Below, piece by piece: positions 1,490 through 62,500 of a stretch of DNA of 64,000 nucleotides. The notes beneath the pieces were generated by a model, which worked only from the letters and a program-made list of their open reading frames with translations, searched no databases and was not told where the DNA came from. A program made the translations under genes and the position numbers. Every line of letters starts with the position of its first letter. Position 1 is the stretch's first letter. Origin of the DNA: Chiloscyllium plagiosum (Eukaryota). The stretch is taken from positions 29,857,564 to 29,921,563 of the forward strand of contig NC_057734.1 in NCBI RefSeq assembly GCF_004010195.1. The letters are read 5' to 3'.

Positions 1490-2850
1490 TACAATGCTTT
1501 GAGTGCAATAATTTCCCCTCATTTCAGTCCTAAGTGAACAGGCCTTATCTTGAGACATTGAGCACTGAGTTTTAGTTCCTCCAACCAGCAGAAACAAACT
1601 CTCAGCATTCACACTATCAAGATTCTTCAGAATATTGTATATTTCAATTAGGCTGCCTCTCACTCTTCTAAACTCCATTGGACAGAGCTGAAAATGTGTT
1701 GCTGGAAAAGCGCAGCAGATCAGGCAGCATCCAAGGAGCAGGAGAATCGACGTTTCGGGCATAAGCCTTTCTTCAGGAATGAGGAAAGTGTGTCCAGCAG
1801 GCTAAGATAAAAGGTAGGGAGGAGGGACTTGGGGGAGGGGCGTTGGAAATGCGATAGGTGGAAGGAGGTCAAGGTGAGGGTGATATCTCTGACAGAATCA
1901 GTTTTGTTAGCACCAGCCTGGTCAATTGGTAGTGGAGTATTTGTTAAAATAGATAGCCTCTCTCACATATGTCAAGTGCACATTGATAATTTCTATCAAA
2001 ATATTTATGATTTAGCTGACTTATATTGCTCACTCATGAGGCATGTGCCTGATTAATATGTGAGAGATGGGGTGTGTATGTGTGGTAACCCGACTGAATT
2101 TCATGTCCTGGTAGTTCAATTTTCACTTGCTGTCATATTTTAGCACTTCTGCAGATTGGTACCTTTCAAACTTTCTTCAGGGTCACAAAGTAATTGAGTG
2201 GCAGGTGAAAGTAGGCATGCTGTGAGCAGGTGTAACCGTTGCACTTGGAGAGTAGATTGGATTGAAGAAGGGCTCATTCCTGAAGAAGGGCTTATGCCCG
2301 AAACATTGATTCTCCTGCTCCTTGGATGCTGCCTGACCTGCTGCGCTTTTCCAGCAACACATTTTCAGCTCTGATCTCCAGCATCTGCAGTCCTCACTTT
2401 CTCCTCCATTGGACAAAGGCCATTCCTATACAGTTTTTCATCATAGAGCAACCCTTTTATCCCAGGGACCAATTTACGGAATCTTTGTAATACTGCCTCC
2501 AATGGAAATATATCCTGCCTTAAATATGGAAATCAAACCACCATGCAGTCCAATCTAGATGTGCTCACCAAACTTCCACACTATTATAGCAAATTTTCCT
2601 TATTTCTATACTTCAACCTTTGAGCAATAAAGGTCAATATGCTATTCACCTCCCTAACTGTTTGCTGTATCTGTTTCTAACTTTCTGTGTTCAGTGCTTA
2701 ACTACATTCACTGAACGTCAGCATTTATAACTTTCAAAAACAATTCTGCTTTTTTAATCTTGTAACCTCACACTAGTCTACATGATAATCCATCTGTCAT
2801 GTTGTCCATTTGCTTAACCAGCCTATGTCTCTTTGTAATCTCTGTCTGCC
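1490..2850 (-). mobile_element. Old CR1-type LINE 3' fragment interrupted by a PLE-bounded insertion (1685-2403)
   Basis: Minus-frame RRVRGSLIEIYNILKNLDSV resembles the CR1 RT C-terminus; the LINE sequence resumes after the 12-bp repeat CTCCATTGGACA. Confidence 0.65.
1685..2403. mobile_element. Composite insertion: inverted PLE-A end + ~380 bp unrelated DNA + PLE-A end, with 12-bp TSD
   Basis: CTCCATTGGACA at 1673-1684 and 2404-2415; PLE-A at 1685-1885 (-) and 2273-2404 (+). Confidence 0.75.
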
Positions 2851-4084: not shown

Positions 4085-4290
4085 AAAGTTAAAAATCACA
4101 CAACACCAGGTTATAGTCCAACAGGTTTAATTGGAAGCACTAGCTTTCGGAGCGATGCTCCTTCATCAGGTGATGAAGGAGCAGTGCTCCGAAAGCTAGT
4201 GCTTCCAATTAAACCTGTTGGACTATAACCTGGTGTTGTGTGATTTTTAACTTTGTACACCCAGTCCAACACTGGCATCTCATAAATCAT
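4085..4290. mobile_element. PLE family B end as a 170-bp palindrome (4085-4254) plus 3' extension
   Basis: 84-bp arms with a 2-nt centre; same sequence as the inverted ends of the GIY-YIG element at 48499-49668. Confidence 0.85.
4138..4172 (-). ncRNA. Minimal type-I hammerhead ribozyme motif (PLE-B)
   Basis: CAC-CUGAUGA-A-GGAGC(AUC)GCUCC-GAA-AGCU-A|GUG: intact core, stem I CAC/GUG, palindromic AGCU in place of stem III. Confidence 0.7.
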
Positions 4291-53592: not shown

Positions 53593-56500
53593 CTGAAACA
53601 AAAGAGCAATTACATTATTAAAATTAACTACACATTTGCTTATTCAAATCCCAGAAAAAGGACATTTCCCCTCAATTGAACCTCCTTTGAGCCAACTCCA
53701 ATGCAGCTTTTGTGAAGGAAAACAGACTCCGAACTATACAGGTCATAACAGGTTATGTAAATGTAGAAAGGTCAGATCTCAGCCAGTGACTCAGTCTCAT
53801 CAAATCCAGACTATTGCCTCACCAATCTCCCAAAATTGCCACAATAGCTCCCTTGTGGATCAAAACTCTAACTCAAGGAGAAAGTGAGGTCTGCAGATGC
53901 TGGAGATCAAAGTTGAAACTTTATTGCTGGAACAGCACAGCAGGTCAGGCAGCATCCAGGGAACAGGAGATTCGACGTTTCGGGCACAGGCCCTTCTTCA
54001 GGAGTCAAAACTCTAACTCAGCCTTGAACAACTGAAATGACAACTTCCACTGCTTTCTAGGGAGTGAATTCCACAGAATAACAATTTTCAAATTTTTCTT
54101 ATTCTTATGTTGATTCTAGTCTCCCCACATCAGGAGGCAAACTCTAAATATCCAAACTTAGAATGTCCTGAGGAGACTTTACATTTGAAGAAGGTTACTT
54201 ATCATTCTTATAACTTTAATGTGTACAGGCCCAATCGTTCTACATAAAAAAAGACTTCTGAACCATGCCCAACAGTAATTTTAATTAAAACTGGTACCAA
54301 AAATACAACTCCAGATGTGATATCAACAAAGTCTTGTTCAACTGCAGTAAAACTTGCCAATTTTTACATTCCACTTCCTTTGCATTAAGACCAACATTCC
54401 ATTTGCGTGCCTCATCACATCTTGTATCTGCAGACTAACTGATTCCTATACTTAGATACCTATATCCTCTGTATCACAATTAAGCAACCTTGAAATAGAC
54501 GAGAAAGGAAACTAACTGCACTGAAAGGACAGGCGAGAACATGCAAAGTCCTGGACTGGTCCTTAAATCTACAGGCTTCTAAATCAGAAGCGCATGTGCT
54601 CCATTTAAAATCAAATTAAGTCTGCAGAGTGAGGCTGCAAAAAGAATCATAAAACAGGATACGCAAACTTGACCGACATCTTGTAATTTAAGCATTTGCT
54701 AAAACAAACTTTTTTTTAAAAGATACAGACAAATCACCTTCATAAATGTGTTTGAGCACTTTCTGCCAACTTTAAGTGCATTAATCCCTCTCAAATAGTG
54801 ATACATCAAGGTGGTAAATTAAACACTCATTTGCTAATGTTGCAAAGAGTAGCTTCTAGGCTGTTTAATAACATCCCTCTGTTGTATTATTGCTTCTAGT
54901 TTGCTGAAATGTTTCAGTGCTGTTTTCATTGAAAAAACTCTATTCTTGCAACATCTTCCACTTATATCAATAGCTTCCAGGTATAGCCCAAGGATATTCT
55001 GTCTCATCTCCCTGCTGTTAATGACAATGCCAATTACATTTTTAAGATTCAGGCAAATATCATGTCTAATTGAGCACTTTGATTAAATTTAACAAAAAAG
55101 GGAAACTGTGCTCCTTCACGAGGCTGTTACTCATTAATTTAGTCTAATGTTATATGCGTTTCACAGAAATTATAACTACTAGTGTACAACTGACATCTCA
55201 TACTGCATTGTCAATTAATGCATCACAAAAAGTCTCAATTTCATAAATTATCTAGCTTGGGATTGAATTATCACATCTCCATGATTGCTCTGATGTTTGT
55301 CTAGATGCAAGGCATCAACTTGTGGATGCACCAGACTTTCTGAAGCACAATATGTTAACGACCAAAACTACCTTCCAAATTTTCCTACTCCCCTCATGCC
55401 ACCATGTCTTCCTGGTTTCTGAAACAGTCATTTAAAAATACTGAAAAAAACAGTAAAATACATTTTGCCTAATACTTTCACTATCCACCTTATACAGTTA
55501 TTTTAAATGTAAAAAAAGGTTTCAAGCAGCTTAGTACAGTTAAGAAAAAAAATGACATTGAGCCAAAGGATAAGGAGAGAGACACTAAGTATGAAAACAT
55601 TATGTTCAGATTTCCGTTAAACATCCTCTGTTCTACGACTAGTGACAGAAACTTCAAGTCAAGTTGCCCTGCTCAGGAATCTCAAAGACAAGCCATTAAT
55701 GATATTAAGTTAATGAGTTGCACCTGCATATCCATAAAATAAACCCAAACTTACTTGAACAATGCAGTTTGACTGGAGGGAGACATAGCTCCTTAGCAAT
55801 GTCTGTGTTCTTAATCGTCAAAGCTTCATCGACCTGCAAATGAATGACTGTCAATGACTCTTTCTTCAAACTAAGCATGTAAGGCTGAGGCACAAAAAAT
55901 ACTTTCACAGGATGCAGTATAAACAGGTGCAATATTTTGATGAGATTTTATTATGTGGCTTTATTGAACATTCCAACAGTATATCAGTACACGGCAAGAT
56001 CCGCACTCATATCTGAATTAAACAATACATTTTCCACAAACAAAAATGAGAGCAAATTGAATGTATATCTGTAAGCCATTACTATACAAATCAAATATTT
56101 TCCCTCTACTTTCAGTTTTAATTTGTGTTTTGGCACCATCTTATCTTTAAATGGTCCAATAACAATTCCTGTTCTTATGTAATGGTAAAAGATTAAATGG
56201 GACTACCTTTCTGGACATTAATGTAATATTAAAGGCTTAAACTGCACTAACTGAACATTCTGGAAGTGGATGGGGATGGTATTCATGCAGGAATACGGAT
56301 GACGCCCAACCCATTTACACAGTCATTTGCTACTACTCGCCTACTATTATGAAATTAAACTATCATTCAGCCCCTTCCATTCATACTTTCATGGCCATCC
56401 CCCAGCCAATCAGGTTTGCTTGCATGATCATCCGACACGGAAGCATATCACACCTACATGGTCTGGGGAAGTAGCGGAGCCAGAATAATTTGCAGAGCCG

Positions 56501-59500
56501 CTCCGAAGCTAGGACATTCCACACCAACATAGTCTTGGGAAATCACTGAATCAGGAAATAGTCTGCTTAACAATTCCCCAGGATTAGGGCATTTATATTA
56601 TCTCAGAGGATGATCTCATCCTCTAATGTACCTGGGGTAACAGGTGGCTATTTTTAGGGGGGGTGGGGGGGTGGGATGGTGGTGGGGGAGGTGGCCAGAG
56701 TATCTGTCAGCATTACCAATTGACCTGTATAAAGGGGATGTGTTTTCTTTGTTCAGGGTCTCTCTTCTGAATCGACTTCACACACCTATGGAGACTGCCA
56801 GAGGGGTCACCCAGCTTGTACAAGCTTTAATAAAAAAAAACTTTACCTGTTTGCAGAAGTTGGTGTGTAGAACCTAACACATATCGCCATCTATGACTGA
56901 CAAGCATTTTTTTTTTACTGCCATGAAAGAAAAATATCTTGTGTCCAGCACATTTTACAAAAATCTAAGCATACAACGGACTAGTCAAGCTAATGTTGTT
57001 CAGACAAGTTCAAGAAATAGTCATTTCTTGGGTAGTTACCAACTGATTGAGGTTGGCACTTAATTTTAATCAGTATTTTAATACTGAAATGGATTATTCC
57101 TGTTCCTTCTGTATATTTCCATGGAATTACCTCAGAGAAGATGAATATCCTTACCGTTTTCCCTTTCACCCACTCTGTAGCCAGTGAGCTGGATGCAATT
57201 GCTGATCCGCAGCCAAATGTTTTAAATCTCGCATCAATAATTTTCCCATTTTCATCCACCTCAATCTATAGAAGAAAAAGTCAAAATGCAAGCAAGTTTT
57301 AACAATTATAATCTTTATCACAAAATTGAAATCATTTGAATATTTACCAGGCAGAAAATTGTAACAGAATCCAAACTGAGACTTCCAGATGACTGAAGAG
57401 AAAGAGCAGCCACACACATACATGCAGTTTCCAGAGGACAATACAACAGACTGGTCATATCCTCAAAAGAGGGAAGTTAACATTTGTTCTCAATGTGATC
57501 CCAGTCTTTCAGGAAAAATTGGTTTGAAATATTACACGTAGCGTAATTAGGAAATGGCTAATATATTAAAAATACTGGAGAACTTCAGTTCAATCAACAA
57601 GATGAAACAGAATTGAAGCTATCGAAGAAATCACTGCCTGATTGTTTTCATTGAATATTTTAACAAACATGAATGGAGGCTTATGCCCGAAACGTCGATT
57701 CTCCTGCTCCTTGGATGCTGCCTGACTTGCTGTGCTTTTCCAGCACCACACTTTTGACTCTGAACTCCTCAGTAGTTTATTACGAGTGTAACTCTGACTA
57801 CAGAAAAGCAAACCTTCTGAATCATACGACAGCACTAAATGTAGAAAAATATTTAACTTTATAGCAATACCCTTTTCTGAAGGCATGGCGATGGGGCCAG
57901 AACGTGACCCTCCATTCACATTTATTTGGCTCATGAACATAATGCTCAAAACACAGGGAAGTGGAATGACAAATTTGCAACGAGCTGCCACCCCAGTGTG
58001 AAGGCAAGTGTTACCTTTCTTCATTTCACTATGGAGATGTATATATAGTCCGTCCATGAGTCATAAGCTCTCTCTATATACACAAAACTGTGGCAACATA
58101 CATTCCACACTTGGCTCCAAGCACACTCACTTCAACCCCATCACTGTCATTGGTAGCACACACTCTGGCTGTTACTGAGATCTTAGCGCACTCAAAGAGC
58201 ACAGGAGTCAAGATGGGAAAGTAGGCTTCAGATGCTACAAGGAACAGTCTCACAATAGTGTACATTTGTTCAGGCTGGTAGAGTCTAAGACTGTGCAAAA
58301 TAAGGACATGTGCCCTATCAATTTCACAGGCATCTCCAAATTCCAAACTCAGTGGTATAATGGCCTAGGGCAAGGCTCAGGGAAGGCTGAGGAAGCAGGC
58401 CAGGGCAGAGAGGGTGGGAGGGAACTAGCGAATGAGTGAGGGAGTATGTATTTGCATATAGATGCAAGAGAATGAGAATCCTCAAGAGGGAGCTGCATAC
58501 ATGCATAAGCTTCTTCTCCCTTCAGCCAAACACCTAGTCACAAAGACTAGGAGGAAGAAATACCAAGCCTGAAAGGCAACCCACTTTCAACCCCTGCTTC
58601 GTGAATTCTACTGACATCAGCTCAATATGTGGCAGAAGCAAACACAAGGTCAGTTTCAGTTAAACTGAAATTCTTAAATCTGCCTCCATTTGAGGCAATC
58701 AGGAATTGGGGCCTAGTCTATCTCTGCCTCAGGTTCAGTTATTTCCTTCTGCTGCTTGGTGGTACTTTCCTGAAGAAGGGCTTATGCCCGAAACATCGAT
58801 TCTCCTGCTCCTTGGATGCTGCCTGATCTGGTGCGCTTTTCCAGCAACACATTTTTCAGCTCTGATCTCCAGCATCTGCAGTCCTGACTTTCTCCTAGGT
58901 ACTTAAAAATAGACTTGTTTGTTTTTTTGTTTAAATTATGCTTAAATAGTGATTCCTTTTTTTTGAAAAGGTGTTGAGTGCTGTGCCAAACCACACATTT
59001 TGAAAATATGCATTGGGTTCTTGAATGAGAAAAGAATTAAAATCTACTTGCTCACATGAAAAGGTTGGACAACCCTGAACTCTGGTGCTCACTCCTGTAA
59101 ATATCCTGGCAGCTACAACTCAAGTGTCAATCTGCAAAATCCACAAATACCAGTAGCAAATTACCCACACCATTTGGCTACAGAGCAACCAGCATATAGG
59201 TTATTTTATATCTCCTGTGACAATAGCACAAGTTTCCATTAATTGAAGCTGTTATTGGACATTAGCATGGAAAACTGCCATCCCCCTGAAATACTTCTAA
59301 GAAACCCTGTTAAGTCGAGAACCTGTTAAACATCTGCATGGTTTCTCGTGTGGTATTGCTATTCAATTTTCTGTCTATGTCTCCTCACTTGAATGCACAA
59401 TTGCTTGGATTGCTGTATAGGCATGTATTATCTGCCTACAGGTTTAAAGAAATTGCTGTGTTTAAATGTAGCCTCATCTCTGGATCACTGATCAAATGTT

Positions 59501-62500
59501 GAGCTCTAATTTTCGTTCATCTAACCCTGTGGCACTGGAGCCAACTGTTGAGCTGAGAACAGCTCACTCATCCAAGAGCTCACTGAATGTTGACCCATAT
59601 CTTTTATTTCAACAATTGTCATACTGAGAAGCAAGCTGACCAACTGAACCATTAAATGCACCCCTTTAACTGTGCTAAGTAACAACTTCTTAAAAAGGGA
59701 TGCATATGTTGGTTTAATTGGCAAAGCTATGTTTAAATGGATCCTTATCCAACTCTGGATCACTGCATGCATTTAATAACTGTACCTGTAGTTTCATGAC
59801 ATCACCACAAGCTGGTGCACCAACCAGGCCTGTTCCAACATTTTTTGCATTCTTATCCAAGGATCCAACATTTCTGGGATTCTCATAGTGGTCCACCACC
59901 TGCAAGATTAAAGAAATCCAGTAGTGCAAGTCATGACGACTCAATAGAAGTCTAGCTTCTGAATGAGAAACTGAGTGTTTAAGTTACAGTTTGAGCATTA
60001 AAAATAAAGTTTAAAGTCCAGTTCAGGACTGATGGAATGTCGTGCTATCAGAACTGTTGTCATTTGCAAGGGAAGGTACAGTTTGCCCTATCAGGTGGAT
60101 GGAAAACATTCCACAACATTGGATAGATTCAACTCTGGAGACAATCAACATAGAGAGATTATGTGATCATGAGACCACATAGCTGTCTGTGGCAGTTTGA
60201 TTTACAGTATACAAATCAGTACTGCATTGCCTACATCATAACACTGACTCGTCATTAAAAGTACTTCAATGCAAGGTTTGTGAAGGTTTATAGCTCAGGT
60301 TGAGGCTTAAGATGTAGGTTTGCTCGCTGAGCTGTAGGTTTGATATCCAGACATTTCATTACCTGGCTAGGTAATATCATCAGTGGCGACATCCAAGTGA
60401 AGCGAAACTGTTGTCTCCCGCTTTCTATTTATATGTTTGTCCTGGATGGTGTTCCTGGGGTTTGTGGTGATGTCATTTCCTGTTCATTTTCTGAGGGGTT
60501 GACAGGTAATATCATCAGTGGCGACATCCAAGTGAAGCGAAACTGTTGTATGTTTGTCCTGGATGGTGTTCCTGGGGTTTGTGGTGATGTCATTTCCTGT
60601 TCATTTTCTGAGGGGTTGACAGATGGTATCTAGATCTATGCATTTGTTTATGCTATTGGGGTTGGAGTGCCAGGCCTTGAGGAATTCTCTGGCTTGTCTT
60701 TGCTTCGGCTGTCCCAGGATAGATGTGTTGTCCCAGTCGAAATTGTGTTTTTTTTTTCATCCGTGTGTAGGGCTACGAGGGAGAGAGGGTCGTGTCTTTT
60801 TGTGGCTAGCTGGTGTTAGTGTATGCTAGTGGCTAACTTTCTTCCTGTTTGTCCTATGTAGTGTTTGTGGCAGTCCTTGCATGGAATTTTGTAGATAACG
60901 TTGATTTTGTCCATGGGTTGTACTGGGTCTTATAAGTTTGTTAGTTTTTGTTTGAGAGTGTTGGTGGGTTTGTGTGCTACTAGGATTCCGAGGGGTCTTA
61001 GTAGTCTGGCTGTCATTTCTGAAACAACTTTGATGTATGGTAAGGTAGTTAGGGTTTCTGGCTGTATTTGGTCTGGTTGTCGTGGTTTGTTCTGGAGGAA
61101 TCTGCAGACTGTATTTTTTGAGTATCCGTTCTTCTTGAAAACATTGTATAGGTGGTTCTCCTCTGTTTTCCAGGACAAACATATAAATAGAAAGCAAGAG
61201 ACAACAGCTTCGCTTCACTTGGAGGTCACCACTGATGAGTAGTAAACAACACTTTATAAATTCAATTACTACTCCCTCTCCTCCTCCTATCATGCTTCCA
61301 TCTGGCCCTTGACCTCATTGCTAACCATCAGGCTGCTTCTCTTCTACACCCCCTACAAATACTGTCCCTGACCACACCTTCTCCGAAGATCTATCCGTAT
61401 TACTACTTCCCATCTCATCATCTGCCAACACTGCCGAACATGCTTAAATCATCTTCCCAAAAATTCTAATTGGGCTGCTTTAGCAGATCCACCATTTCAG
61501 TCCCCTCCCCGTCCCACATATTTCTTTCTATTTTCCTCTTGCTCACCTTTCTTATATACACACACTAGTTTTCTGATACTTTACACTGTTTCCTTTTTTG
61601 GCCCTAACTACCTTCCCTTCATGACTAACGTGCAATTCCTCAATCCCTATCTTCCTTTCATTTTACTAGGTTCAGCTGACTTTTTCCTTTCCTTGACTTC
61701 TATTCCCATTTTTGGGGATAAGGTGTCCACCAATATCCACTCCAAATCCACCATCTCTGACAGTTACCTTGACTACATTCCTGACTGTGCTACAAGGACT
61801 ACATTCCATCCTCTCAGCTTTTCTATCTCAACCATTGAGATGGTTGCCTTTGAAATGCCAGTTTTCTCCAACCACAATACCAAACATCTTTTTCTTTCCT
61901 ACTACTGTTCCTCAGAGACACCCTGATCTCCTTTACTTCTGACACTTCCTCACCTCTATGGCACATTTCCACAGAATTGCAGATTGCATACTGCCTATTA
62001 CTTGACCTCCTCACTGTTCAAGGTGAATCAGTAGTTTGCTTGCACAGGTCATTCTGCTATAGCACGTTTTGTTAATGCAAATTCACTATAACATGATTGA
62101 TGTATTGGGGTCACTTTCTAAAGCACAAACTTTTAAAGTGCATATTGGTTATTATGCAATTCCGGCCCAATTAGTTTAAATGGCACTGCTATTATGCAAA
62201 TAACCTGGTGTGGTGTGATTTTTAACTTTGCTTCAAGAAGCATTCCTTCGTTAGGCACCATTGCACCCTCCTTCGCACACCCTCTTACTGCAGCCACAAC
62301 GTTCTCCTGTCGTTAAAAACGGTTAAGAAATGTTGGAAACGCTCAAATCAAACACTATGTGTAAGATCACCCGCTTCACCAGGCGGTGCTGATATCAGGC
62401 CAACAGCCTCCAATCTACTCTCCATACATTTGCATCACTCCTCTGGCCCACCCCGATTTCGGCAGCAAGGAACCTCGGGGGGGGGCGCACTATCAGTAGG

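Follow-up and report, generated by a model that had tools for sequence, protein, structure and literature searches.

Positions 1886-2403 of the 64,000-nucleotide stretch of Chiloscyllium plagiosum DNA analysed here (the window) are one copy of a solo Penelope end together with the 377 bp that lie upstream of that end at another locus, i.e. a 5' transduction. The shared flank, stutter, diagnostic bases and internal duplication, together with a recipient site that is empty in a related organism (B), identify a locus on contig C13 as the donor, whilst the second, inverted arm of the insertion was copied from a different Penelope template. Host-DNA capture between Penelope ends has already been published; what is new here is that the source element can be traced, and that the two arms derive from two templates.

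Table 1. Features of the insertion and its target, in window coordinates
Feature	Position	Strand	Basis or remark
Target-site duplication, left copy	1673..1684	+	Present once at the empty sites in organisms B and C
Tail-less, 5'-truncated 3' end of a Penelope-like element (Neptune-type by motif): ~100 nt body and pseudo-LTR	1685..1885	-	Not C13-derived
Cargo: unique host DNA (377 bp) that lies upstream of the Penelope end at the donor	1886..2262	+	Genome search and alignment
Upstream copy of the donor's own 15-bp duplication, 1 mismatch to its C13 partner	2250..2264	+	Direct reading
12-nt stutter of the pseudo-LTR start, donor-inherited	2263..2274	+	Alignment; also in the organism B donor contig
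Solo pseudo-LTR with 32-nt tail (2372-2403)	2275..2403	+	A2305 and T2307 common to the donor
Minimal hammerhead motif, predicted: core 2280-2286, stem II 2288-2299, GAAA 2300-2303	2280..2311	+	Compared with the description in PMC4209133
Target-site duplication, right copy	2404..2415	+	Direct repeat; empty sites
Old interspersed repeat, the target; also left of 1684	2416..2770		Alignment to copies

The insertion is bounded by CTCCATTGGACA, a 12-bp target-site duplication that can be extended to 15 bp with one mismatch; its right arm ends at 2403, position 2404 being ambiguous with the duplication, and its inverted arms (1683-1783 and 2273-2373) are 96% complementary over 101 nt. When 1685-2415 is deleted in silico, seven of the eight copies of the old interspersed repeat align across the junction, at 60-68% identity, and the eighth aligns to the right side only, which bears out the continuity of this repeat proposed in the preliminary description. 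The empty orthologous site with a single duplication copy that it had suggested looking for is present in two related species: one contig of organism B joins 1672 directly to 2404, and in a contig of organism C, 17 letters separate 1668 from 2419. That description had also placed the 12-bp duplication, both inverted arms, the stutter and the unique middle correctly, and its central idea, a single Penelope-linked event that moved unique host DNA, is supported.

Searching G000 with the cargo returns two places, the window and G000:C13:25195345-25195723(-), and the middle (1886-2262) has no other match within the window. The alignment of 1886-2403 with the donor runs over 520 columns with three substitutions (2053, 2293 and 2385) and one 2-bp indel at 2072. 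At the donor, a Penelope end stands in register with the cargo, carries the same stutter and has its own 15-bp duplication with one mismatch, and sequence further upstream of the cargo is single-copy for the next 1021 bp. The copied piece stops at the tail end, and the donor's 3' flank is absent from the recipient. The two hammerhead changes common to donor and recipient appear to be rare, as the recipient 12-mer around 2305/2307 occurs in 0 of 122 other copies, a figure that rests on a local sample of copies. As for the stutter, which gives rise to an 18-nt near-duplication (2263-2280 and 2281-2298), its exact 29-mer occurs at 18 loci, and only two of these, donor and recipient, have the cargo flank in common; an origin of the stutter in this very event is therefore rejected, since it was inherited from the donor.

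The donor is also the older of the two loci. A 2092-bp contig of organism B aligns with 1886-2291, stutter included, after 1685 letters that lie off the window, so the donor with its stutter is present in the organism whose recipient site is empty, and hence predates the insertion. In organism C, there was no cover over 1941-2168 at 90% likeness. Donor and recipient differ by 0.6%, against 3.2-3.4% between organisms A and B, which makes the event a young one.

The preliminary description had offered two origins for the middle segment: a switch of the Penelope reverse transcriptase onto a host template, to be recognised by a single donor free of Penelope-like sequence, or a non-autonomous cargo-carrying family with many copies. 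A single donor locus does exist, but it is not free of such sequence; with end, stutter and duplication already in register there, the right junction lends no support to a jump onto an unrelated host template. Nor is a cargo family supported, as the cargo occupies only two loci in the assembly and sixteen of the stutter loci lack this flank. The left junction does join two unrelated templates, and this is the part of the earlier reading that has something in its favour; taken as a whole, we regard an unrelated, Penelope-free template or a multicopy cargo element as extremely improbable.

That the left junction unites two templates follows from the left arm itself, which includes ~100 nt of element body absent from the donor, has the family bases at both diagnostic sites, and contains a 66-nt stretch with two private bases; these features show that it was copied from a template other than the C13 donor, so that the arms of the focal pair come from two sources. 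An exact search with the 66-nt stretch finds the focal locus only, and returned no source for this arm. In the twin priming of L1 elements, primers from staggered nicks yield an inverted 5' part within one duplication, with one RNA serving for both parts. The focal insertion resembles that process in its presumed two primers from staggered nicks, its inverted part and its single duplication, but differs in that its arms were copied from separate sources, each beginning at the 3' end of the element. Fold-back or twin priming on one template is accordingly rejected, given the non-donor body of the left arm and its lack of both diagnostic bases. The junction between the left arm and the cargo (1885/1886) is blunt, without microhomology or added bases, as judged from the comparison of window and donor and from loose contig ends.

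Could the junction be a product of assembly rather than of retrotransposition? In such a misjoin, the arms would be real and the middle would have been filled with the other C13 allele by way of the shared Penelope end. Many Penelope copies in this assembly do contain N gaps, and the donor-recipient difference (3/518) is not far above that between individuals (5 in 2057 at the donor). Moreover, the X3 and X5 contigs of organism A show the donor form of the cargo only, the X3 contig running unbroken across the junction point and X5 having a depth similar to its flanks, and no contig crosses 1885/1886 among those examined. However, the focal insertion contains no Ns, the left junction offers no overlap that an assembler could use, the recipient lacks the donor's 2-bp gain (three organism A samples) and in this is like organism B, and contigs drop rare paths. 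The outer junctions, furthermore, are present in X3 (both) and X5 (left) with 22-23 letters of the element, short of the 31-letter standard for bridging. On balance, a misjoin seems to us improbable.

How, then, was the copy made? We think it probable that a read-through RNA served as the template from which the element's reverse transcriptase copied the C13 end and its 377-bp flank. A host transcript would cross the donor end in the sense direction and Penelope protein would bind it in trans; one nicked target strand would prime copying at the tail end, either of the donor RNA or of an ordinary Penelope RNA, and copying would continue through the donor's stutter and duplication into the upstream flank. 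For the other target strand, priming would occur on a second Penelope RNA, at its tail-less start; head-to-head joining of the two cDNAs would follow, with no microhomology involved, and the stagger between the nicks would account for the 12-bp duplication. As to where copying began, we tentatively prefer direct initiation at the tail of the donor read-through RNA, without calling it probable; a start on ordinary Penelope RNA with a homology-guided switch between RNAs within 2308-2384 appears unlikely.

We infer an RNA template because the copy stops exactly at the tail, its source is on a different contig, 1885/1886 is blunt, and a gene near the donor runs in the same orientation. The distance of the donor sets the event apart from the two other cargos traced in this family, both of which are local and come without a donor Penelope end, and the co-orientation with an RNF228-type gene has even odds by chance. 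Three considerations weaken the RNA route: the base at 2385, the family's habit of copying nearby DNA, and the hypothetical nature of a transcript through the donor. Position 2385, at which 55 of 56 copies agree, is of the family type in the recipient and private in the donor; initiation elsewhere followed by a switch would explain this equally well as a mutation that arose later in the donor. The interval 2308-2384 begins at the predicted hammerhead cut and would fit a jump from a cleaved RNA; we offer this as speculation, because it depends on one base, and the diagnostic sites are CpG changes whose place in this interval is coincidental.

These same observations could be read in terms of a DNA template, whereby a cDNA started on an ordinary Penelope RNA invades the homologous C13 end, extends on DNA past the stutter and the duplication into 377 bp of flank, and is joined to the other arm. 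Such a route needs no transcript; it would account for the family base at 2385, with the first donor-diagnostic base at 2307, and it has parallels in local captures by this family (on C25, 44 bp with a source 1.4 kb distant; in L047, 244 bp at 96% identity from within a few hundred bases). Yet the source here is on a different contig, the single difference at 2385 is within reach of later mutation, and 1885/1886 is without microhomology, some of which is usually left by repair-type capture. We consider templating by DNA rather unlikely, albeit the foremost competitor of the RNA route.

What RNA might have crossed the donor? The donor is intergenic. On its strand, the RNF228-type gene terminates 14.6 kb upstream, and nine AATAAA signals separate the stop codon of this gene from the donor, so that an RNA arriving at the Penelope end would have to be nascent read-through or some other transcript. 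A neighbouring gene, at 98% identity, marks the host as a shark close to Hemiscyllium. Paired-box exons are found on the donor's strand ~90 kb downstream of it. Of the read runs, X21 placed 69 reads, none on the unique part, and X22 placed none; X20 (organism B, its being RNA a guess) yielded two unstranded contigs of low depth, located 93-665 bp upstream of the cargo. Along C13:25.05-25.38 Mb, the exons follow in the order homeodomain and paired-box (-), RNF228-type (-), tRNA-synthetase B5/B3-4 (-) and acyltransferase (+), and candidate labels among these genes are PAX3, FARSB and MOGAT1.

The focal arms are the 3' end of longer copies with a reverse transcriptase and a GIY-YIG domain. The latter is detected above the cut-off in L050 (23.4 bits); in L069, GIY-YIG is preceded by an RVT_1 match that is weak and below the cut-off (E 0.0045), and YIDD is present in the translation. 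In the translations of the longer copies, the reverse transcriptase is followed by a CX4CxxC linker and then by a C-terminal GIY-YIG with a CCHH finger. According to PMC8557442, Penelope/Poseidon elements have neither a CX2-5CxxC linker nor an endonuclease CCHH finger, and the motifs thus point to an endonuclease-bearing (EN+) Penelope-like family of Neptune or Nematis type rather than of Penelope/Poseidon. The linker would not separate Neptune from Nematis with certainty, and our assignment to the Neptune type is one by motif.

The hammerhead of the focal copy is likewise a prediction. Its cleavage triplet is AUU, against GUC in the family, the motif is not the minimum-energy fold, and the Rfam scan gave no hammerhead match. 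It was tempting to see in a dead ribozyme the enabler of read-through; we dropped this argument, because the core pattern, as judged by sequence, is intact in 71 of 130 young copies and damaged in the other 59, because most family copies start upstream of the hammerhead cleavage site, and because cleavage is dispensable in vitro. The 12-nt stutter may represent a slip at the CTCAT common to the pseudo-LTR start and the stem-II loop; it recurs at loci L013-L030. Elsewhere in the window (4101-4290), we noted by eye an inverted pair of a different hammerhead-bearing repeat, with a CTGATGA core and a longer stem II.

Inverted pairs are a regular product of this family. All 39 duplication-bounded pairs that we collected, from fetched DNA partly chosen by pattern searches and including two without overlap between their arms, have exactly one tailed arm, the other being tail-less. 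The two arms of a pair have the same base at subfamily sites in 28 of 29 pairs at 2293 and in 30 of 34 at 2318, where random pairing would give about half. Given this agreement, most pairs look like products of a single source or of one subfamily, which makes the two-source focal case atypical. Some pairs share rare variants between their arms; L021, L026, L057 and L060 disagree, which suggests a minority of two-template insertions. At the arm junctions of 12 ordinary pairs, eight have 1-3 nt of overlap, one is blunt and three contain inserts. In a related family, a short direct repeat followed by apparent 5' element sequence and a pseudo-LTR produces false duplication calls (G000:C13:25280196-25280313 and 25334172-25334446).

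Cargo is uncommon in this family, with two local captures traced besides the focal event. In our survey, 198 arms gave 20 flagged rows, from which eight segments were examined, whilst the remaining rows stemmed from the focal event, repeated an insertion that already had a row, or contained Ns. Five of the eight proved to be Penelope body or stutter, two were local DNA, and one was LINE-like. A further 690 kb of C13 held 45 arms and two flagged rows, which resemble Penelope 5' sequence; across both sets of arms, no second flank transduction was found. The first local capture (L047:1237-1483) is an inverted pair with a 14-bp duplication around 244 bp that are an inverted copy (96%) of L047:557-798, a source just upstream of the site at which no Penelope end was seen. 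The second (G000:C25:29473157-29473210, L153) is an inverted pair with 44 bp that match inverted DNA 1.4 kb away at 93%. The LINE-like segment (L034:1747-2456, 710 bp) lies with a Penelope end inside an apparent 15-bp duplication, and may be a nested insertion or a capture. Apparent 750-bp cargos in L055 and L056 gave nothing in searches and turned out to be N gaps, and long 'open frames' likewise proved to be N gaps.

The closest precedent is found in Adineta vaga, where host DNA is mobilised between Penelope pseudo-LTRs (PMC3846280; summarised in PMC6431247). PMC3846280 mentions non-coding captures between solo pseudo-LTRs, and an LRR gene with a pseudo-LTR on its 3' side, and proposes self-priming. 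The focal event is alike in having host sequence between pseudo-LTRs, one duplication, an empty site and presumed action in trans. However, compared with what is described there, the source element is here identified, with its duplication and barcode inside the copy; the source pseudo-LTR lies only 3' of the cargo, a different copy supplied the second arm, and the cargo yielded no gene. A second likeness is with the 5' transductions of SVA elements, as presented in PMC12593883, in which an upstream flank is co-mobilised and the source confirmed by an internal duplication. Unlike SVA, the focal copy involves no poly(A) priming, would start at a Penelope tail inside the presumed RNA, and ends in an inverted second arm.

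A further comparison is with PAc, a Poseidon element of Anolis studied in vitro, for which PMC11167929 reports internal initiation of reverse transcription, with the tail end as a start site, cutting and extension of both target strands, and no need for hammerhead cleavage. Its two start sites lie about one tail apart, and the focal arms end at the corresponding sites; indeed, the one-tailed architecture of all 39 pairs matches these two in vitro starts (PMC11167929). The differences are that the focal family is Neptune-type by motif, and that our evidence is a genomic fossil. Within the accessible literature searched, we found no paper tracing a Penelope-like 5' transduction to its source element.

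The event moved 377 bp without a gene found and without a known effect, and its value is mainly that of a mechanistic fossil, relevant to the still debated mechanism by which Penelope-like elements come to form inverted insertions and to take up host DNA. The barcoded source reveals that arms can come from different templates, and that a copy can stop at the tail without the 3' flank of its source. With donor-recipient pairs gathered from the whole genome, the orientation of the donors would tell RNA templates from DNA templates. Perhaps any solo Penelope end is a portable handle at which reverse transcription can start, from the tail, on a sense host RNA and proceed into upstream host sequence, the other strand being primed on a different RNA; we put this forward as a possibility, and a little short of a probable one. 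Solo ends would number ~10^5, as extrapolated from 69 young arms in 964 kb. If the idea holds, shark genomes would possess a standing, poly(A)-independent system of 5' transduction, and donor-recipient pairs would record nascent transcription in the germ line and test the Penelope mechanism in vivo.

The preliminary description had also remarked on intron/exon signals within the middle segment. The motifs are there, CTGCAG (2149-2154) and GTAATT (2190-2195) enclosing 35 nt, but their reading as an exon does not hold: the cargo is an unspliced intergenic copy, colinear with the donor and containing no known intron, and it diverges from organism B by 3.4%, much like its flanks (3.2%). The splice-like signals are probably due to chance. 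Among 47 non-repeat frames of at least 45 aa in the 10 kb holding the donor, none gave a Pfam match above the cut-off.

At the recipient locus, the first detected exon of a DHX37-type helicase lies ~15 kb downstream of the insertion, the exons of this gene extending over 17058-37592 (+). The window further contains NifU_N (ISCU-type) exons at 55708-59983 (-), and two tRNA genes at 46315-46386 and 46882-46953 (-).
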